From the IMG/VR virus record IMGVR_UViG_3300026980_000004: DNA of 64,000 nt, one strand, 5' to 3'. The position numbers were made by a program, and so were the translations under genes. This document shows, in pieces, positions 1 through 30,165 of this stretch. The notes under the pieces were generated by a model. It had not been told where the DNA came from. It saw nothing but the letters and a program-made list of their open reading frames with translations, and searched no databases. The stretch is from a virus. Taxonomy: Duplodnaviria > Heunggongvirae > Uroviricota > Caudoviricetes. Numbering within the stretch: position 1 is the stretch's first letter; every line of letters begins with the position of its first letter.

Positions 1-98
1 ACAACACCAAATAAAACCAATAGCCTGTCTTTTGCTTCTTGCTTGCTTATTTCGTGTTTACAAAGTTCATCTATAATTGAGTCTATTTTCTTTTCCAT
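1..98 (-). CDS. Cassette protein, partial (MEKKIDSIIDELCKHEISKQEAKDRLLVLFGVV...)
   Basis: Hand-translated. ATG at 98 lies in the first hairpin loop, the GTT core is in frame, and the ORF runs off the window. Confidence 0.6.
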   Translation of the reverse strand, partial: MEKKIDSIIDELCKHEISKQEAKDRLLVLFGV

Positions 99-125
99 AC
101 GGCTACTGTTTTTATTTGTGGAACG

Positions 126-386
126 TTAGCAACCATGTAAGATAACAAACTCCTGCCAAGGCTGTAACTGTTTCGCAAAGTCAACCGCTTTCTTTGCCTC
201 TTTATAACTTTTGAATGGTTCTACAAAGTGAATTGCAAAATCCACATCAATTAACCATGATTCTGGGGCAGTTTCCATGCTTTCAAGTCGTTTGAATTTA
301 CGGAAAACCCAATAAACACGGTTGCTAACAACAAACATACTTAATGCCTGTTGTAGTGCGTTTTTGAACATTTTTACTATTTTCAT
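126..386 (-). CDS. Cassette hypothetical protein
   Basis: Starts in the loop of site 329..446; its stop is the TTA of the GTTA core at 125. Confidence 0.7.
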   Translation of the reverse strand: MKIVKMFKNALQQALSMFVVSNRVYWVFRKFKRLESMETAPESWLIDVDFAIHFVEPFKSYKEAKKAVDFAKQLQPWQEFVILHGC

Positions 387-458
387 AATTCTACTATTTT
401 GATTGTTAGTTACTATTTAATCAGGCACTAAGCATGTTTGCAGCCGTTATAGCCAATG

Positions 459-680
459 CTAAGAAACTACATCCTTACCAAATTTCGGTAAAGACAACAA
501 CTCGAAGCGTTTTATTAATTCTGACAAAATCATATCGGTATCGTCTAATCTTGGTGGAACGGTCATAGTAAAACTTGCACCACCTGTTGAACATAATTTA
601 CTCAATGCTGATTGAGCTTTTTCGGCTAATTTTAAATTTGGAATTGCTTCGAGTTGTTTTTGAAATTCTTCGTGTGTCAT
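459..680 (-). CDS. Cassette hypothetical protein (MTHEEFQKQL...)
   Basis: ORF track; the likely ATG at 680 lies within the cassette body. Confidence 0.7.
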   Translation of the reverse strand: MTHEEFQKQLEAIPNLKLAEKAQSALSKLCSTGGASFTMTVPPRLDDTDMILSELIKRFELLSLPKFGKDVVS

Positions 681-830
681 AATTATTGATTTAAGAAGCA
701 CTGGCTATAACAGCATATACCCAAAAGAGGGGTTTTAGTGCTGAAATGAACGTCTGTGCTTCGGTTAATATTCATTGTTAATTGATAGTTTAGTGTTTCA
801 AAATCCCCTCCTTCGGGTATATGCAAACCG

Positions 831-1037
831 TTACCCACCATTTATTTGAACAGGTAATCCATTATCAATCACAAATTCAGGGCAAATACTTTTTTTAGTA
901 TATCTGCATAATTCATTGTTCCAAACTTTCCATTTAACACGTTTCGATAATCCTAATGTTTCCACAGCTTCCTCGATTGAAGAAAAAATGGTGGGTAACA
1001 CAGGGTATAGTTCATTGCTTTGTTCTTGCTTATTCAT
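831..1037 (-). CDS. Cassette hypothetical protein
   Basis: Starts in the hairpin loop and stops at the GTTA core; the core is read in a different frame (VLPT). Confidence 0.65.
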   Translation of the reverse strand: MNKQEQSNELYPVLPTIFSSIEEAVETLGLSKRVKWKVWNNELCRYTKKSICPEFVIDNGLPVQINGG

Positions 1038-1118
1038 ACTGTATTTCTTTTAATTTAAGTTCGTTTTAATTTGATAGGGCAGTGTTTCAATCACGCAACG
1101 AAACCATACCCAAGTCCG

Positions 1119-1328
1119 TTAGCAACCATACTCATTAAGTATATCTGCTACTAACATCCTAAGTTTTTTATTAAACGTACCTATTTTGGCAAGTTGGTGT
1201 TTATCCATGAAATTATGCAATCGTTCCGCAACATCTTGTGAAGTTTCTGTAAATGTACGGTTGCTAACATCGGCTATAAAATCATTGCCTTGTTCGTGCT
1301 TATCCAAAGTTTTTGTTTCTTTACTCAT
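1119..1328 (-). CDS. Cassette hypothetical protein (MSKETKT...FIADVSNR...)
   Basis: Starts in the loop, crosses the arm and stops at the GTTA core. Confidence 0.7.
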   Translation of the reverse strand: MSKETKTLDKHEQGNDFIADVSNRTFTETSQDVAERLHNFMDKHQLAKIGTFNKKLRMLVADILNEYGC

Positions 1329-1402
1329 GTCGTTTCTATTTTGAAAGTTCAAGCGTTTTTATCGGCAACGCTTCATAGCCTTGTTCGTTATAAAACATAA
1401 AA

Positions 1403-1585
1403 TTATTTGATTAATGCTTGTAATGTTTCAATAACTTCTCTTACTTGTTCGTTATTTAATTCGCAATACGAAATTACTTTTTTACCATTAAATACATTAT
1501 ATGTGGCTATTGAAACAATACCATGTAATGTATCTATTTCCAAATTTTCTTCTCCTTGTGCGTTATTTATTACCAATTTAGCCAT
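1403..1585 (-). CDS. Cassette hypothetical protein
   Basis: ORF lies entirely within cassette body 1387-1604. Confidence 0.65.
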   Translation of the reverse strand: MAKLVINNAQGEENLEIDTLHGIVSIATYNVFNGKKVISYCELNNEQVREVIETLQALIK

Positions 1586-1714
1586 AATTTTACGATTTTA
1601 TAACAACAAATATAAAACATTTATTTCAGTTTTCCAAATTTATTGTTGTGTTTTTTATTTATATTTTGTTTTTCAATTAAACTTTTCGTTATAAACGTTT
1701 TATATTTGCAACCG

Positions 1715-1927
1715 TTACCAGCAATGCTTGTGAACCCAATAGCTTTCTTGTACCGTGCAAACAGTATCTGGTATAAATACGTGCATCACACCCTTTTGCT
1801 CTTCAAGTTGTTTATAGCTTAGGAATTTTCCGCAATGTTTGCACTTACGCCACGATTGAGAAGCACTGCTGCTAACAGCACCTATACCCAATTGGGCGGT
1901 TTCATTGTTTTTTGAAGTTTCTTCCAT
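1715..1927 (-). CDS. Cassette small Cys/His-containing (possible Zn-binding) protein
   Basis: CKHCG and HKHC motifs; arm peptide LGIGAVSSS. Confidence 0.65.
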   Translation of the reverse strand: MEETSKNNETAQLGIGAVSSSASQSWRKCKHCGKFLSYKQLEEQKGVMHVFIPDTVCTVQESYWVHKHCW

Positions 1928-1996
1928 TTTATTAAGTTTTATCTGTTATTGAAAATTTGTTCATTTAATTGCCCAACTGGGCATAGCTGCAACACG

Positions 1997-2215
1997 TTAT
2001 GCGTAATGCTGTGAAATCCTTAACCATTTTTCATCTTCATACTGCTTCTTGCCATCACAATCAATCAAATACCAACCTTGTTCATCAAAGTAAGCCTTTG
2101 TGCTGTAAGTAGCATAACTCATTTCACTATCTGGTATATCAAAGTACAAACTACGCATAACATCGGCTATACTCAACGCCTTACCTTCTGCGTTAAATAA
2201 TCCTGTCTTTTCCAT
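1997..2215 (-). CDS. Cassette hypothetical protein
   Basis: MEKTGLF...ALSIADVMRS; stop at the GTTA core. Confidence 0.7.
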   Translation of the reverse strand: MEKTGLFNAEGKALSIADVMRSLYFDIPDSEMSYATYSTKAYFDEQGWYLIDCDGKKQYEDEKWLRISQHYA

Positions 2216-2296
2216 ATCAAATTTTGTTTTTAAAATTAGCTTAGTCTTTAAAAATTCGGCACTAAGCATAGCCGTGAACCGTTATGTATAATGTTT

Positions 2297-2566
2297 TTAC
2301 CCTTCCCAATCTCTATCAATATATGAAAGTTGTTCTTTTGTTTCTTCTATTGTTTTACCAATAAAATCTTCTAATTTACAACTATGTTCTTTTTCATAAT
2401 GTTTTATCCAATCATCAACACCAAAGACAACTTTCATTCTATCGTTATATTCTTTTCTAAAGGTTTCTATGTTATCAAAACTCAAAACACTATACATAAC
2501 CTCAGATATATGTAATTTTTCATTACTCTTATCTAAGTTTTGTTCTAAATTTTTACTTTCTTCCAT
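2297..2566 (-). CDS. Cassette hypothetical protein, paralog of 6777-6965
   Basis: The two share FGVxDWIKH...FIGKxIEE...IDRDWE. Confidence 0.75.
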   Translation of the reverse strand: MEESKNLEQNLDKSNEKLHISEVMYSVLSFDNIETFRKEYNDRMKVVFGVDDWIKHYEKEHSCKLEDFIGKTIEETKEQLSYIDRDWEG

Positions 2567-2619
2567 TTTATTAAATTTTGTGTTAAAACTACATATATCT
2601 GTAACCGTTAGTGGTAATG

Positions 2620-2844
2620 CTAAAACAACAAGTCAATAGTTTCCTTATCGTAATACCTTACCGTGTTTTTACTTCCGCAATTACCACATTCATCTTCAAA
2701 AGGAATATTGCACCCTTTCATTCCACAATCTTTACACCAAGTAAAAACACTATGTATGTTCTTACCAACAAGTTTTTGTTCCCAAGCACTACCGCTAACA
2801 AAGTATAAGCGTAATGCGTTTATCCATTTAATCAAGTTTTTCAT
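2620..2844 (-). CDS. Cassette Zn-ribbon-like protein
   Basis: CKDC...CGNC motifs. Confidence 0.7.
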   Translation of the reverse strand: MKNLIKWINALRLYFVSGSAWEQKLVGKNIHSVFTWCKDCGMKGCNIPFEDECGNCGSKNTVRYYDKETIDLLF

Positions 2845-2962
2845 ATATTTTAAGTTTCATTTTTTAAATTTAACCATGTGTAAGCACTACGCTTATACTC
2901 GACCGTTGTGGTGCATTAAAACGTACGCTTCGCCACCACAACACAGTATATAGGCAATAAGC

Positions 2963-3178
2963 CTACTTATTCCAGTGCTTTTTATAGCCCTCAATAAATT
3001 CCTTATCAAATTCACTTTTCCACCCGCATTTAGGGCAATTAAATTGTTCACCATCAAATTTGGTTCTCGGCCACCTTTCACCTTTAAGTGGGTAGCTTGT
3101 TCTTGGTTTACAAAGTTCATCACCGCAATACGGGCTATAACCTTGTCTTGTCATTAAATTATCTCTTACAATACTCAT
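2963..3178 (-). CDS. Zn-ribbon-like protein encoded wholly inside a hairpin loop
   Basis: YCGDELC...CPKCG; lies between the arms at about 2943-2966 and 3198-3225. Confidence 0.75.
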   Translation of the reverse strand: MSIVRDNLMTRQGYSPYCGDELCKPRTSYPLKGERWPRTKFDGEQFNCPKCGWKSEFDKEFIEGYKKHWNK

Positions 3179-3236
3179 AGTTTCGTTCTTTTAAGTCGTA
3201 GGCTTACAGCCCATATACTCGGCACGTTAGTGTCAA

Positions 3237-3413
3237 TTATTTTGTCCAACAATGCCAACAATCATTACATACAAGTTTTGTATCATCCCAAAAGTTCGTT
3301 CTTATTTCAGATTTACCACAATTTGGACAAAATAACTGTTCGCTTCGCCCACTAACAACAGATATATTCAATTGTTTGTGTCTTTTAAATAAGTTTTTAA
3401 TAAATTTTATCAT
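3237..3413 (-). CDS. Cassette Zn-ribbon-like protein, 58 aa (not in the ORF track)
   Basis: Hand-translated MIKFIKNLFKRHKQLNISVVSGRSEQLFCPNCG...CNDCWHCWTK; shares GRSEQL with 4164-4394. Confidence 0.7.
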   Translation of the reverse strand: MIKFIKNLFKRHKQLNISVVSGRSEQLFCPNCGKSEIRTNFWDDTKLVCNDCWHCWTK

Positions 3414-3475
3414 TTGTATTTCAATTTAAGTTTGTATTCAACTGAATATATCTGCAACCGTTGTAGCACATACGC

Positions 3476-3685
3476 TCAATCTGTCCGTTCAAACAAAGGA
3501 ATGTAATGCGTGACCCACCCGTCTTTCAAACCAAATTTCACAGTCGAGCCTTGTTCCCATTGCCACCATTTTTTACCATCAAACCAAGCCTGCCCATCTT
3601 CATCAGTACCAGCAGGTGTTTTAGCCTTGCACTGAGTATTTGGTTTAGGTGGGTTTGAGCTTTCAATCCAATTTTCGTTATTCAT
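3476..3685 (-). CDS. Cassette protein, DUF551-like
   Basis: WIES..PP N-terminus and VTHYIPL C-terminus. Confidence 0.55.
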   Translation of the reverse strand: MNNENWIESSNPPKPNTQCKAKTPAGTDEDGQAWFDGKKWWQWEQGSTVKFGLKDGWVTHYIPLFERTD

Positions 3686-3794
3686 TTTCGTTCGCTTTAC
3701 GATGCTACAACAATGGGTATAGTGAATAGCCCATTGAAGGCATCAGGTTAATATTAAATTTTGTGGGTAGGGCTACTCACCATACCCGAAACCG

Positions 3795-4016
3795 TTATCC
3801 ACCATTTGACAACAACTTCTCATGGTCATTAATCGACCTTTGAAGAAATGCCATTTGGCTACTAACTTTTGCTTGAATATTGTAAACTGCACCCGAATCA
3901 AAGTTTAGTTGCTCATTATAATCTTTGAAGGTTTGCCAAAATTCTTCAAGTTCCATTAACTCTTCTTTTCTCTGCCCAATGTGCTTTTTGATATTTATGT
4001 CTTTCAAATCAATCAT
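3795..4016 (-). CDS. Cassette hypothetical protein (MIDLKD...)
   Basis: ORF track; likely ATG in the body; stop at the GTTA core. Confidence 0.65.
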   Translation of the reverse strand: MIDLKDINIKKHIGQRKEELMELEEFWQTFKDYNEQLNFDSGAVYNIQAKVSSQMAFLQRSINDHEKLLSNGG

Positions 4017-4163
4017 AATAAAAACGGTGGCTAACAAAGTATATAGCACATAGCCTGTCAGCCATTTTTGAAACTATGTGCGGTTGTTAAATTATCTTCT
4101 CTTTTTTTTTAGGTCTGTGAGTGGCTACGTGCCATATACAAACCGTTGTAGGCAATTAGTTTG

Positions 4164-4394
4164 CTACTCTTCTACGTTTCTATCACACTGTAAGCATTGC
4201 CCGAAGTATATTTCTTTGTCAGTTAATTTGTTGCCACATTCGCAAACTAACTGTTCGCTTCGCCCTACAACATCGTGTATGCGTAAGGCTTGAAGTATCT
4301 TTTTAGCCTCAAACACTCTTCCTCTTTGAAAATCCGTTTGAGGGTACTTAAAATACTCAATCGTGTGTTCAAGTTGTCTTATTATTTCTTCCAT
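4164..4394 (-). CDS. Cassette protein with C-terminal Zn ribbon
   Basis: ALRIHDVVGRSEQLVCECG...CLQC. Confidence 0.7.
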   Translation of the reverse strand: MEEIIRQLEHTIEYFKYPQTDFQRGRVFEAKKILQALRIHDVVGRSEQLVCECGNKLTDKEIYFGQCLQCDRNVEE

Positions 4395-4445
4395 TGTATC
4401 AGAGTTTTTTTGTTAATAAATCACCCTACGCATACACGAGGAACG

Positions 4446-4745
4446 TTAGCCGTAATTTTGAAGAAGCTCCCGTAAAGCATCCTTATTACTTACAGCTATA
4501 TCATTTCTTTGCTCCCCATCTAAAAACCAAGTCCAAAATTCAGTAGCATTTATCGTTATCCTACCTTTTTTGTAATAGTATTGTGCAGGTCGCATACTAC
4601 TAATACTTATATATCCAGTACCTAACATCAACCGCTTTTCAAATCCAAGTTCAACCAAGTCCTCTTCGGATAAAAAACTACGGCTAACAACAGGTATATT
4701 TAATGCCTGTGTTTCTGCGTTATTTAAGTTCTGTTCTTTTTTCAT
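4446..4745 (-). CDS. Cassette hypothetical protein
   Basis: MKKEQNL...ALNIPVVSRS; stop at the GTTA core. Confidence 0.7.
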   Translation of the reverse strand: MKKEQNLNNAETQALNIPVVSRSFLSEEDLVELGFEKRLMLGTGYISISSMRPAQYYYKKGRITINATEFWTWFLDGEQRNDIAVSNKDALRELLQNYG

Positions 4746-4856
4746 CGTTATCTCTATTTTTAAAGTTATTGCTATTAAATCAGGCACTAAACATACCCAA
4801 ACCGTTGTAGCACATTAAAACGATGCTACAACAATGTATATAACACATACACTCGC

Positions 4857-5057
4857 TTATGTAGGCTCTTTTAATTCCGCCCAATGTGTTGGCAATAAAC
4901 TCAGTCGATAGTCTCTTGTCGGTACTACTGCAAAAGTTCCGTCCGTCCATTTAATCACACCAATATCCCAAACGTTAAAGTGTTTATTCCATCTCGCACC
5001 GAGTATTCGTGTTCCATCTTTGGGCGGGGTTTGTTCTTTAATTGAAATCCATTCCAT
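4857..5057 (-). CDS. DUF551-like protein encoded wholly inside a hairpin loop
   Basis: MEWISIKEQTPP...THWAEL pattern; lies between AAC 4832 and GTT 5112. Confidence 0.7.
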   Translation of the reverse strand: MEWISIKEQTPPKDGTRILGARWNKHFNVWDIGVIKWTDGTFAVVPTRDYRLSLLPTHWAELKEPT

Positions 5058-5112
5058 TTTATTAAATTTTAGTTGTTAAAATCGCTCGTTTTACGTGTCA
5101 TATACTTTGCCG

Positions 5113-5412
5113 TTAGGCAACATTAGCTTCGTACTTTAAATACGAGGGCTTTATATCGTAATTTTTACCTTTGTATTCTACATTTACATATCTACCTTCA
5201 AAGTTCGCCCAGCAGTAATTAACCTTTACTATTGTGTTAACTGGTATTGATTCTTTAGGGTTCTTTTCAAAATAGTGTATATCTGCCATACAAACAGCCC
5301 TCTCAGTTACTACTAACTTGTTTCCTTTTTCGCATACATATAGTCCGTTTTGTATTTCAATTGCTGTTTTATTTTCGTAGTGGTGTCCAAGCAATTTAAT
5401 TTGTTCAATCAT
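5113..5412 (-). CDS. Cassette hypothetical protein
   Basis: ORF track; ATG in the body; stop at the GTTA core. Confidence 0.65.
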   Translation of the reverse strand: MIEQIKLLGHHYENKTAIEIQNGLYVCEKGNKLVVTERAVCMADIHYFEKNPKESIPVNTIVKVNYCWANFEGRYVNVEYKGKNYDIKPSYLKYEANVA

Positions 5413-5557
5413 AATAACGTTGCCTAACAAAGTATAAAAACAAAAGCTATTATTAGGCTGTTTATAAGGCTTTTGCTTGTTAATTAATATAGTTTCTTTA
5501 CTCTAAGTTTTTGCGTACTTACACGCTTCAATTTTTATACAAACCGTTAAGGCGAAT

Positions 5558-5755
5558 TTAATACTCGCCCATTTGTCCCCTCATTTTTTCTTCAAAACAG
5601 TCGTTACATTCGTAGCAACCTTCAAAATTCCAATTCTCATCATACATTTTGTGTTTTTCACCTGTTTTTTCTTCACCACAAACATCGCATAAAAAACTCG
5701 CCTTAACACTATGTATAGTGCATGGCTGCTCGGTTTTTGAATGTTTTGTACTCAT
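5558..5755 (-). CDS. Cassette Zn-ribbon-like protein
   Basis: CDVC...CNDC motifs. Confidence 0.7.
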   Translation of the reverse strand: MSTKHSKTEQPCTIHSVKASFLCDVCGEEKTGEKHKMYDENWNFEGCYECNDCFEEKMRGQMGEY

Positions 5756-5827
5756 ATTTAATTTTATTTAAGTTTTGGAACTATGTGGCTTTGTTCGGAG
5801 GCAGCCACGTCACCATACATTTTAACG

Positions 5828-6148
5828 TTACCCAACATTTAAGTTAGGCAACTTTGATTCTATGTGAAATTTCGGACTAATCTGCTTCCCTCTCTGCTCA
5901 AGCCAACTGTAACAATCCAATCCTACTTGTTGCCTTATCAATCGAATACCACGCCATCGCAGCTTACCTTTGGTTATTTCGCCTTTGATAGGGGGTTCTG
6001 CCATAGTTCGTAAAGCAGTTGTAAATAGTTCTTCTTCCAGCCTGCGAACTTCATCAAATAAACGTTGGGTAACATTGGCTATATTTAATGCCAAGTCCTC
6101 GTCAACTTGAAAGTTCGGGTGTTCAATTCTTTTTAGTTCATATTTCAT
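5828..6148 (-). CDS. Cassette hypothetical protein
   Basis: Arm peptide ALNIANVTQR; stop at the GTTA core. Confidence 0.7.
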   Translation of the reverse strand: MKYELKRIEHPNFQVDEDLALNIANVTQRLFDEVRRLEEELFTTALRTMAEPPIKGEITKGKLRWRGIRLIRQQVGLDCYSWLEQRGKQISPKFHIESKLPNLNVG

Positions 6149-6190
6149 AATTATCGTTTTTTAAGTTGGCACTAAACATAGCCGTAGCCG

Positions 6191-6400
6191 TTATACGCAA
6201 TGCTTTGAAACATATCGGTCAGCGTGTTTTTCAAGTTTATCACTATTGTAATGTGAACCTAATGATTCGCCATCTAAAGCTGCTTGTAGTTGGTCGATAA
6301 CACGCTGTTCATAACCTGCCTTATAAGCATTGCGTATAACATCGGCTATATTCAATGCCGATTTTTCAACCTCATTCAAGTTTTCGTTTTCTTTACTCAT
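6191..6400 (-). CDS. Cassette hypothetical protein
   Basis: Arm peptide ALNIADVIRN; stop at the GTTA core. Confidence 0.7.
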   Translation of the reverse strand: MSKENENLNEVEKSALNIADVIRNAYKAGYEQRVIDQLQAALDGESLGSHYNSDKLEKHADRYVSKHCV

Positions 6401-6466
6401 TCTATCTGTTATTTAAAGTTTTTACTATTTAATACGCCACTAAATATAGCCGAGAGCCGTTGTAAA

Positions 6467-6715
6467 TCATTTGCCATCAAAAGTTTGGTTGCATTTTTGG
6501 CAGATGTCTAAATCCGAAGTGAACATTATTAGTTTACAGTCTTTACCATTAGGGCAAACGTCACTATCGTTATTTACAACATTGGCTATAAATAATGCTT
6601 TATCAGCAATAGCCTTTAACCTTTTTATTCTTTGCATCTTCGTTTCAGATGTAGGCTTTATTCCATATTTAGATATTTTCTCTAAAGCCTTTTTGTATGT
6701 TTCTAATTCAGTCAT
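6467..6715 (-). CDS. Cassette protein with C-terminal Cys cluster
   Basis: ALFIANVVNN...CPNGKDC...CQKC. Confidence 0.7.
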   Translation of the reverse strand: MTELETYKKALEKISKYGIKPTSETKMQRIKRLKAIADKALFIANVVNNDSDVCPNGKDCKLIMFTSDLDICQKCNQTFDGK

Positions 6716-6776
6716 TGTATTAAGTTTTGTATATATTAAGTCGCACTATTCATAGCCTTTACCGTTATGGGTAATA

Positions 6777-6965
6777 TTATTCCTCCCAATCCCTGTCTAT
6801 GTGTGAAATTACTTTTTCAACTTCTTCAATATCTTTTCCTATGAAGTCAGTTAAATTATATTTAGAATGTTTTATCCAATCATTCACACCAAAAAGTAAT
6901 TTCATTTTACAGTTGAATCTGTTTTTAAATTCTTCTAAATTATCTAATGTTAAAATACTACCCAT
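6777..6965 (-). CDS. Terminal cassette protein, paralog of 2297-2566
   Basis: The likely start is the ATG in GTTATGGGT. The longer ORF-track N-terminus overlaps another ORF. Confidence 0.6.
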   Translation of the reverse strand: MGSILTLDNLEEFKNRFNCKMKLLFGVNDWIKHSKYNLTDFIGKDIEEVEKVISHIDRDWEE

Positions 6966-6988
6966 AACAACAAATATATGTAATAAAA

Positions 6989-7117
6989 TTAAAATATCAA
7001 ATACCCAATCAAAATCCCAAAAAGAATTAATCCAATACCAATGGAAATAATAACCACACATCCATAATTCTTTTTGGGTGTTCCGTCTAAATTATAATCT
7101 TCTATTCCATCAAACAT
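6989..7117 (-). CDS. Small membrane protein, 42 aa (MFDGIEDYNLDGTPKKNYGCVVIISIGIGLILFGILIGYLIF)
   Basis: Hand-translated; one hydrophobic segment; abuts the array boundary. Confidence 0.55.
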   Translation of the reverse strand: MFDGIEDYNLDGTPKKNYGCVVIISIGIGLILFGILIGYLIF

Positions 7118-10100: not shown

Positions 10101-13030
10101 TGAAAATCCATAAAAAATCTAACCTTATTTTTGTAGATAAAAATCTCCGATATTGGGAAAATACCATTCCAACATTCTACATATTCACCAACTTTAAAAA
10201 CTTCACAATCTGTTAATCTCTTTACTGATTTAATTTTTGAAATATTATTTGAATCCGTATAATAACCCAAAATTTCGTAATCTCTATTATTTTTCGGATC
10301 AATAAATTCCCAATATTCCTTATATAATTTATAAATATCTGTACCCAACCAATCCTCACTACAATCATTTTCATCGATATAGTAATGTATCGTACCCTTT
10401 TTGGGTGAATTTGGATATTCTTTAATTAATTTATACTGTATTAAATTTTTACTCATAATCTTTTTATTATAATTCTACCAATTTTTTCATCTAAAACATC
10501 CTGCATTGCATTTTTAATACAATTGATACTAAATTTTAAATAATTGTCGTTTAATGGATATGTTAATGTAATTATATTGGCTAATTTTTCATATGTGGAA
10601 AACCAAATCCGTTTTCTAATTTTCTCATATTTTTTTACCAACAATTCAACATCTGAAATATTAGATAATGTATTATGGTAAAATTCCAATTCTTTATTAA
10701 ATTGAATTAATTCATCAATAGAATATTCATATAATATTTTATATACTTTTTTTGGTATTAACATATTATTGATTTTTAAAATTTTAATATAATTTATGTT
10801 CTTTAATTTTAAAATCAATCCCTTTCTTAATCAATTCCTTTCTGATTATTTCCTTATCTCGTACATTGTTCTTAATAAATCTTAGCTTACCATTAACAAA
10901 TATTTCAAACTTTTTAATTTCTGTATTCATAATATTATAAATTAATTAATCCAATAATATAATCGTTCGTATCATATGAATAATGTGTTAATTCCTTTTT
11001 AAAAACATAATGATTATATCCATCAGAAATTAAAACCTCATCATCCGCCAATTTTTCAATTTCATTATATAGTTTCTCGATTATAACAATCTCAATTTTA
11101 ATATCATGAATTGTATCAAAATTATCAACAACAAAACTAGACTTAAATTCTTGAACAAAAAATTCATCAATGTCATTATATTTATTATAATAATTATTAT
11201 AATCATCACCAAAATCATCAGCACTTGGCATTAATGGTTTATATGATAATAAATTAGTTCTATACCACAAATCCCAACCACTTTTTTTATGAAAAGTACA
11301 TAAATCAAAACCCATACTATCTCCTAAGTCCCTTGCATCTTCAAAAGTTTCAAAACCAGTAATTGCCAATTTTAAATCTTTTGGATATCCATTTAAACCA
11401 GTTGTTGTTTCAATAACATCAAGTCCATATTCACTTGCAATATCCCTAATCTCCGATCTATCGTATATAACCCTATTCATCTTTATATCTGTCTTTTAAG
11501 TACTCATAATATTCAATACCATCTTCTGTTATACCAGTATCTGACCAATGACTAGAAATATCATGTAATAATTGTAAATCACTCCAAAAATGTATATTTT
11601 TAATATGTGAAACTTTATCATCCAATAAACGATCAATCTCATATGATTCCAATAGTGACGATATGGACTCAACATTTAAATGATAGTTGTTATTAAAATC
11701 AATTTTCATATATCTTCCAACCGCACATTTTTTACCATTATTCGAATATAAACATGTACCAGCAAGAGTTATAGACCTTCTTTCCAGTGGATTAACTGAA
11801 TAAAATTTCAGAGTATCCTCAATAATATCAATTGGTTTTAATTTCTTACTTTCCATTATATTTTATTTATTTTAATATGTCCAATATTTTTAACAAAACT
11901 TTTTAAATGTTGTGTTGAGCCATTATAAAAATCAATAAAATCATTTAATTTCATAATACCAACGGTATTTTCATCCATTTTAAAGTTGTAATTAATTAGA
12001 AAATTAATCACAGTCCTATTAATAGATAACATAATTTCATCGTCATTCATTAAATCATTTACTTTTATATCAAAAACCGTATGATTAATGAATTTGACAA
12101 TATCTAAATTATCAGAAGTTACAATATAAGTTTCCATATCTTTTAATTTATTTCTTTTTCAATAAAATTTTCAATCTCTTCATAATACTCTCCATCCCAT
12201 TCCCTATCTTTATTCTCTAGTTCAAATTTATCTGTAAGATCAATACATAAATCCCATATACCACCAGAACCATGTTGAATTTGAGTATCTTCTAATTTCT
12301 TGGGATAATTGTCATTATCCATCATTAATGTAATCATAGATACAATTTCATGGTGCGTCTCTGCCCAATTTCGAAAACCATTTGGAAATACCTTATTCAT
12401 GTTACTTTATTCAAAATCGTTATAAATACACTCAAATACATAATCTTTGTTTAATATAAAACTAATAATATATCTATTTTCGGGGTTTTCCAATGTAATA
12501 AAAATTTTACCAGAAAACCAATTATTACCACCCAATTGATTAAATTTATAATTATTCTCAATAGAAAAATTCTCAATATCATTAATATCGTATGTTTCGC
12601 CCTTTTTAAATTCTATTGATTCTTTTCTAACAGTTGGATAATAAACACCAAGCATATTACATCTATTATCGAATAGATAATCATTTGGGTTATCGATACC
12701 CGAAATATCGAAAACCTGTCCTTTAATTTCATTGAAAGTTTTTAACATTGTCATTTATATTTTTTGGTTGAACATTGTATCAGTAAATATAACACATTGT
12801 GAACAAAAAACAAAAAAAATCCCACAAATTTTTGCAGGATTTTTTACTCTTTTATTTAATTTTTTTAATATAATTAACAATTAATTTATCCAAAATAAAT
12901 ATTCTTTTATACCAAGACATTTTTAATATATCCAGAATAAATTTTTCAGCATTTATATATCTATCTTGATATTCTTCTGCCTTATTCATTAACCAATTAG
13001 CATCTTTTAATTCTTTTTTTTCCATAGTAA

Positions 13031-29589: not shown

Positions 29590-30165
29590 TTAATCTTCAA
29601 GATATGCAATATATGCTTTTATTACTTTAGTTATTTGTTTAAATTCCTGTGTATCTCTTGGGGTTTCAATTACCTCATCGGATTTTAGGAATTCTTTCCA
29701 TTGTTCTACTGTTCTTTTTTCACAACCAATATGGATTAAATTTTCATTTGTAATTCCATGATCCCATTTACAATAAATTGGAAATTTAGTAATATTACTT
29801 AAATTTGCATTACTTAAATTAGCATTACTTAAATCTGCATTACTTAAATATGCATTACTTAAATATGCATTACTTAAATTTGCATTAAATAAATCTGCAT
29901 TAAATAAATTTGCATTTCTTAAATTTGCATTACTTAAATTAGCATATCTTAAATCTGCATTAAATAAATTTGCATTACTTAAATCTGCATTACTTAAATT
30001 AGCATATCTTAAATCTGCATTAAATAAATTTGCATTACTTAAATCTGCATTACTTAAATCTGCATTACTTAAATCTGCATTACTTAAATTTGCACGTTTA
30101 CCACCTTTATTATTCAGCCATAATTTATGGTCTTCTAATATTTTATTTAATTCTAATTGATTCAT
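29590..30165 (-). CDS. Pentapeptide repeat protein
   Basis: About 20 A(D/N/Y)L(S/F/R)N repeats, from a 15-bp tandem DNA repeat. Confidence 0.95.

Follow-up and report, generated by a model that had tools for sequence, protein, structure and literature searches.

Small open reading frames (ORFs) that are enclosed by a terminal stem are familiar from the intervening sequences of 23S rRNA, whose RNA stems are cut by RNase III within the rRNA and whose ORFs belong to one protein family, the S23p type. In integrons, cargo genes are located on the top strand between the recombination sites, and the loops of these attC sites are non-coding. The attC sites span 57-141 bp, and the way in which integron cassettes are first made is "largely unknown" (PMC5371416). 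Loop length varies widely among attC sites; those with long loops recombine well when delivered as single strands, and their recombination from double-stranded DNA is lowered by up to four logs in true integrons (PMC8946536). The Vibrio cholerae repeats, which measure about 120-130 bp in all, likewise feature non-coding loops.

Phage genomes, including that of a Polaribacter phage, carry attC-like sites as well, and five of the six phage attC sites tested recombined with IntI1, according to the available part of Qi et al. 2023 (PMC9892861). The phage CALINs and integrons described there comprise sites of ordinary length, detected with IntegronFinder and HattCI, with the genes between the sites, while loop-borne genes, a stock empty body and a short cognate recombinase are not reported in that part of the paper (PMC9892861).

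The window analysed here, a stretch of 64 kb, covers the left end of a virus record that measures 265,845 bp and carries direct repeats at its termini. It holds part of an integron-like gene array in which one cassette carries its entire gene in the loop of a probable recombination hairpin. The explanation that we favour, and consider likely, is that of a mobile cassette of an integron-like Bacteroidota-phage system, belonging to a recurrent class with the gene in the recombination-hairpin loop and described by a two-looped dumbbell model. In the literature searched, in which subscription papers were thinly covered, no account was found of genes inside a hairpin loop or of this Bacteroidota system.

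The array and its recombinase

The array comprises 27 hairpin sites in an uninterrupted run across the genome join, which starts beside the gene of a tyrosine recombinase.

Window 1..6968, plus strand: array part in the window; crosses the terminal repeat to genome position ~263,820, adjoining the recombinase gene
G000:C1:262963-263766 (= L001:1468-2271), minus strand: 267-aa tyrosine recombinase gene, outside the window; heads the array and points away from it

Read on the plus strand, the 27 sites consist of AAC, a spacer of ~3 nt, an arm, the loop, the opposite arm, a spacer of 5-7 nt and GTT, and the bodies carry 9-mers at both ends that are mutually complementary. At its base threshold, the site finder yielded 13 false positives per 119 kb of shuffled sequence. 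The ORF is encoded on the bottom (minus) strand in all 26 classified cassettes; 10 of these ORFs occupy the body loop, 14 straddle the stem and 2 lie in the hairpin loop. In 10 cassettes (window 126-6400) and in 28 of ~96 body or straddling genes across loci, the minus-strand stop codon is provided by the TTA of the crossover GTTA. The first body opens at GTT without a preceding arm, ~50 nt from the recombinase start, at a putative attI-like site, and at the distal end (window 6764-7000) the last body is followed by a left arm without a right arm. The gene at 6777-7061 of this distal end is a paralog of that at 2297-2566. A second small array of the same site type, with 3-4 cassettes on the other strand, is found at G000:C1:194238-194925 (L003) with no recombinase nearby.

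The recombinase matches PF00589 (E 2e-36) and SAM_4, and its catalytic R, K, HxxR, H and Y motifs align with those of XerA and VchIntIA, the catalytic residues being intact. At least two cassettes accompany 33 of the 40 recombinase-homolog loci in viral contigs, with the arrays on the opposite strand, and adjacency of this kind suggests that the enzyme acts on the array sites. Its closest counterpart in INPHARED, from Cellulophaga phage Ingeline, is 38% identical, and the cassette itself is absent from the cultured phages in INPHARED.

With integrons the system shares a tyrosine recombinase gene divergent from the cassette array, hairpin sites framed by AAC and GTT with G|TT break points, a bottom strand that folds better, as computed here, and one small gene per cassette with little non-coding DNA. 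On the other hand, the recombinase, at 267 aa, is devoid of the IntI-specific insertion, 38 residues spanning what is 86 in VchIntIA 2A3V, and reaches 157.6 bits with TIGR02249, for which the cut-off is 265. Cargo genes occupy the bottom strand instead of the top strand; the site under study extends over 291 nt, about twice the attC range of 57-141 (PMC5371416), and has its gene inside the variable loop; no single extrahelical base is seen in its L box; and the spacer asymmetry (~3 vs 5-7 nt) constitutes a further difference. Compared with the Vibrio cholerae repeats, the whole cargo lies within the loop here and the body is the constant part. The system is integron-like, yet it falls outside the integrons on three tested features: the missing insertion of the recombinase, the strand of the genes, and the long site with a gene inside.

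The host is probably a member of the Bacteroidota, because the cassette also occurs in a Tenacibaculum genome and because repeated CAAATATA motifs of the window resemble the Bacteroidetes -7 promoter element. Many copies of the CAAATATA-containing motif, each followed by a small inverted repeat, are placed between minus-strand genes at window 17566-42574 and probably represent promoter plus terminator units. A 15-bp tandem repeat at window 29738-30154 encodes a pentapeptide-repeat protein and is ordinary.

A gene within a probable recombination hairpin

The cassette under study, whose 321 bp are close to the size of its array neighbours, and a second one of its kind comprise the following features of the window.

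2906..3226, plus strand: whole loop-cargo cassette, 321 bp; short body and hairpin between two G|TT crossover points
2905..2942, plus strand: 38-bp body, nearly empty, whose 9-bp ends are complementary; one version of a stock body seen with many genes
2914..2923, plus strand: minimal filler CATTAAAACG, which recurs in empty hairpin loops and other empty bodies
2945..2966, plus strand: left arm, with L-box-like GTAT, internal loop and an inner stem that includes the gene's stop codon
2963..3178, minus strand: 71-aa gene, wholly within the hairpin; Cys-containing small phage protein, probably Zn-binding
3198..3219, plus strand: right arm; on the gene strand, the ATG follows 19 nt after it
3226..3228, plus strand: right GTT with inferred crossover G|TT, placed by comparative break points
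4805..5112, plus strand: second loop-cargo cassette; its body has 29 bp (4804-4832), its hairpin interior 279 nt
4857..5057, minus strand: 66-aa DUF551-family gene within the second hairpin (ORF and profile match)

An earlier note on this DNA had described a near-empty 38-bp body, which proved exact, and a hairpin around the entire 71-aa gene with the TAG stop in an arm. The latter coordinates were confirmed: the stop codon occupies 2963-2965 within the left arm, and the loop of the site accounts for 230 of its 291 nt. The label "Zn-ribbon" given to the product is based only on conserved Cys residues and on profile matches that stay below threshold (Pfam Zn_ribbon_3, E 0.023); it is a probable Zn-binding phage protein. 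The arms of the second loop-cargo cassette are weaker, with a score of 22, and not uniquely cognate.

Pairing and folding of the arms

The same note had proposed to fold both single strands and conceded that the arms might pair no better than chance, which is contradicted on either strand. Taken by themselves, the arms reach -13.0 kcal/mol (top) and -15.9 kcal/mol (bottom) compared with -4.3 +/- 1.9 in 1000 base shuffles, none of which folded as well (z -4.6 and -6.3, respectively). Owing to the predominance of the 230-nt loop, the fold of the whole 307-nt stretch does not stand out from that of shuffled sequences (z -0.30 top, -1.72 bottom), and arms-only folds and base-pair probabilities were adopted in place of the whole-site shuffle test. 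The arm score amounts to 34 with the own partner and to at most 21 with any of the 26 other array sites. Since the left arm pairs best with its own right arm, the two do not stem from two different sites of the array. Stem probability is 0.95 on the bottom (gene) strand and 0.57 on the top strand. The arms are equal in length and contain 1x1 and 2x2 internal loops, and the sites share a conserved AT/AC mismatch at a distance of ~10 nt from their body box. Across 23 families, arm positions 6-19 are paired in 76% as opposed to 40 +/- 3% with partners cross-shuffled, a figure uncorrected for kinship among the families. The computed fold of the excised circle is a dumbbell, in which the GTT/AAC box is closed by the body loop and the GTA/TAC box by the hairpin loop.

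Better folding of the gene strand, together with G-T(U) pairs, fits RNA and bottom-strand DNA alike. The arms could accordingly be read as a processing or stabilising stem acting in RNA round a small ORF, with mobility brought about by homologous recombination. We regard this as highly improbable, since the G|TT break points occur without flanking homology, the sites form an array beside a recombinase, identical boxes close hairpins that have no gene, and Rfam returned no match. The rRNA intervening sequences differ as well: neither an rRNA location by Rfam nor a single S23p-type family was found here, the cargo being diverse, and the ends behave as DNA crossover points. An RNA role is possible as a side effect of the arms.

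Movement of body and hairpin as one unit

The nearest homolog of the 71-aa protein (92%) is encoded on a 35.7-kb phage-like contig with NinG and Gp157 genes (L013), where it is enclosed by the same arms and adjoins the same 38-bp body. A third copy of the cassette is present in Tenacibaculum haliotis (L081:7430-7830), next to one degenerate empty hairpin and with no further site found in that locus. The neighbours of the three copies differ on both sides, and similarity among them begins at the left GTT and ends at the right GTT. Likewise, across nine multi-copy loop-gene families, identity falls from 0.91 on the immediate inner side of the left GTT to 0.30 on its outer side, and amounts to 0.36 beyond the right GTT; ungapped identity inside the right GTT is lowered by spacer indels and was left out of the argument. 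Moreover, body length is anticorrelated with the length of the right hairpin (rho -0.70, p 7e-5) compared with +0.10 for the left one in this array, and the corresponding values are -0.47 and -0.05 in arrays found via the recombinase (n=127). GTT-bounded similarity and the anticorrelation with the right hairpin thus define the cassette as a body plus the hairpin to its right. As the same unit of body, hairpin and gene recurs among other neighbours and is cut at G|TT, it moves as a whole, and by these comparisons of sequence the cassette is real, recurrent and mobile.

Bodies and hairpins might instead form a two-part system and swap separately at the G|TT and AAC junctions, for example if an Xer-like enzyme carried out complete two-strand exchange between dumbbells, so that a stock empty body happens to join a self-sufficient hairpin. 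This we judge rather unlikely, although one hairpin is seen with many bodies, shared protein N-termini stop at the AAC junction, and the recombinase is the short form without the insertion. In addition, the related loop cassettes L085 and L086 have differing short bodies, and the body and outer arms in the window differ from those of L013 and L081 and resemble those of the first cassette of their own array. What speaks against separate exchange is that loop-gene hairpins found without the body motif still have short left bodies, namely in 5/5 credible cases beside recombinase homologs and in 11/13 of another set, whereas ~85-90% of bodies are long. Furthermore, in 57/57 pairs with a long body in common the right hairpin was also shared, though only 3 of these pairs are informative. 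The tight link between loop gene and short body limits two-part exchange, the main rival, which may complement the dumbbell model rather than supplant it.

Loop-borne genes in other loci

A 21-base motif from the body matched 60 stretches in viral, metagenome and genome collections, a set that is selected on the body and hence biased to it; two stricter DNA patterns had no match in viral contigs. Where a closed hairpin follows the stock body, it contains a whole ORF in 27 of 29 distinct cases, the other two being a read-through and a shortened derivative. At some of the motif matches the closing arm is not in reach, and in L051 the stock body is flanked by empty hairpins. Taking all loci together, 49 loop cassettes from 34 unrelated protein families were obtained, 18 of these families with the 38-bp body motif, and the bodies beside loop-borne genes measure 28-112 bp in all 34 families. 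In samples that were not chosen by body, loop cargo accounts for 2/27 in this array and for 5/176 beside recombinase homologs, always with bodies of 29-72 bp. In most loop cassettes the stop codon coincides with the inner end of the left arm or lies a few bases from it (mode -4 nt, 14/37), and the ATG of loop genes is mostly no more than 10 nt from the right arm. Judged from the loci compared, loop-cargo cassettes are a widespread, recurrent class of the Bacteroidota-phage integron-like system. The proposal that cargo can be carried in the variable loop of a site is thereby supported, with 34 gene families of this kind and a unit that moves intact.

Origin of the loop genes

Full-length homologs of the 71-aa gene that lack arms are present at 12 loci (L004-L011, L017, L018, L021 and L022), in operons of phage-like contigs. 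These free homologs share its start, and the nearest of them also agree with it at the C-terminal end, so that the 71-aa gene is not truncated. In a weakly supported tree, the three loop copies form a shallow tip among them. The search for the gene with and without arms, which the earlier note had recommended, thus recovered closed arms in L013 and L081 and bare genes at the 12 loci. An internal site that was simply deleted, as that note had considered, is at odds with homologs that have either the same closed arms or none, no two-site form being found. L015 retains only the arm on the stop-codon side and is most simply a decayed cassette.

A loop gene of L062 has a free homolog in the same phage as the window (window 12852-13025). 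L062 and L028 contain one and the same gene, which stops in the arm in L062 and reads into the body in L028, a pair that points to a route from loop genes to straddling genes. The straddling genes of L091, L105, L108 and L114 have in common a hairpin-encoded N-terminus of ~22 residues, which continues in frame across the AAC junction into C-termini that are unrelated.

Loop cassettes could also be products of decay: the inner halves of the sites may have been lost from an ordinary body cassette, or a stop may have appeared in the arm of a straddling gene whose body eroded. Deletions and half sites are indeed found, in that the body is missing from L083, the loop is shortened in L065 and a single arm is left in L015. 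Nevertheless, a decay origin is largely refuted and has only a slight chance of being right: the arms are cognate (34 vs at most 21) and covarying, the ends of the free homologs speak against truncation, independent erosion would not yield one 38-bp body for 18 families, and the comparison of loop genes with body or straddling cassette genes gave no match. The notion that loop cassettes are body cassettes recombined at the wrong (L) box was ruled out, because this would swap the boxes as well as the short and long spacers, whereas loop cassettes keep the normal polarity.

Stock parts and the assembly of cassettes

Several parts recur independently of the gene. In L086, arms near-identical to those at 2945-3219 enclose an unrelated 67-aa gene, and one other arm pair encloses six unrelated genes (L023, L040, L058, L078, L084 and L085), while one gene is found with two different outer arm sets, each self-paired (L055 and L058). 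Ordinary cassettes present the mirror case, in which a single hairpin type is combined with a variety of bodies that bear genes (184 pairs). The filler CATTAAAACG occurs both in bodies and in hairpin loops that are empty, and cassettes without any cargo are found in L069, L094, L123 and L127; an empty precursor with exactly the arms of the 71-aa gene was looked for and not found. From the recurring bodies, arms and fillers it follows that the cargo-free segment, be it the body or the hairpin, is a shared part. The idea that CATTAAAACG is a proven capture target was rejected, since it might simply be the shortest closure compatible with the conserved AT/AC mismatch.

The gene-filled body at 3460-3711 and the empty body at 4804-4832 have the same ends and differ only between CAT and ACG. 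An internal inverted repeat of 11-15 bp is present in the bodies at 3226-3356 and 4145-4271: coding sequence at one end is reverse-complementary to the stretch at the stop codon or immediately behind it. These inner repeats suggest templated copying of arms.

In the dumbbell model, each cassette would form two loops, the body loop and the hairpin loop, either of which can house the cargo, which may also straddle the stem. Folded bottom strands would be excised and inserted at G|TT by the short tyrosine recombinase encoded next to the array, in the way that IntI acts on attC. A new cassette might arise, which is less sure, when one loop of an existing scaffold takes up an ordinary phage gene that has been cut back to a short leader and its ORF, the other loop staying a minimal stock filler. 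The inner stem would come to end at the stop codon via templated copying or selection, and straddling genes could derive from loop genes via stop loss. Because long loops lower recombination from double-stranded DNA in integrons (PMC8946536), loop cassettes may move only via single-stranded routes, the likely one being the single-stranded phases of phage replication.

A more far-reaching version, which is conceivable but doubtful, holds that a dedicated de novo process loads a trimmed gene into either loop of a reusable dumbbell and uses the ends of the cargo itself to form the inner stem anew. The earlier hint that such cassettes may reveal how cassettes are born is plausible and gains strength from the stock body, the stock arms and the free homologs, with the loading of the gene being the part that we infer.

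Implications

The distribution of the cassette indicates traffic between phages and a Bacteroidota genome, and site finders with a cap at attC length would overlook the loop-cargo class. The system would, in addition, represent gene shuffling by a recombinase without the insertion that is thought essential for integron function. With a constant empty part, constant arms around different genes, free donors and a candidate enzyme all in hand, cassette capture becomes directly testable. If a dedicated loading process does exist, loop cassettes with the stock 38-bp body would be its direct products and would provide a visible route for cassette genesis.
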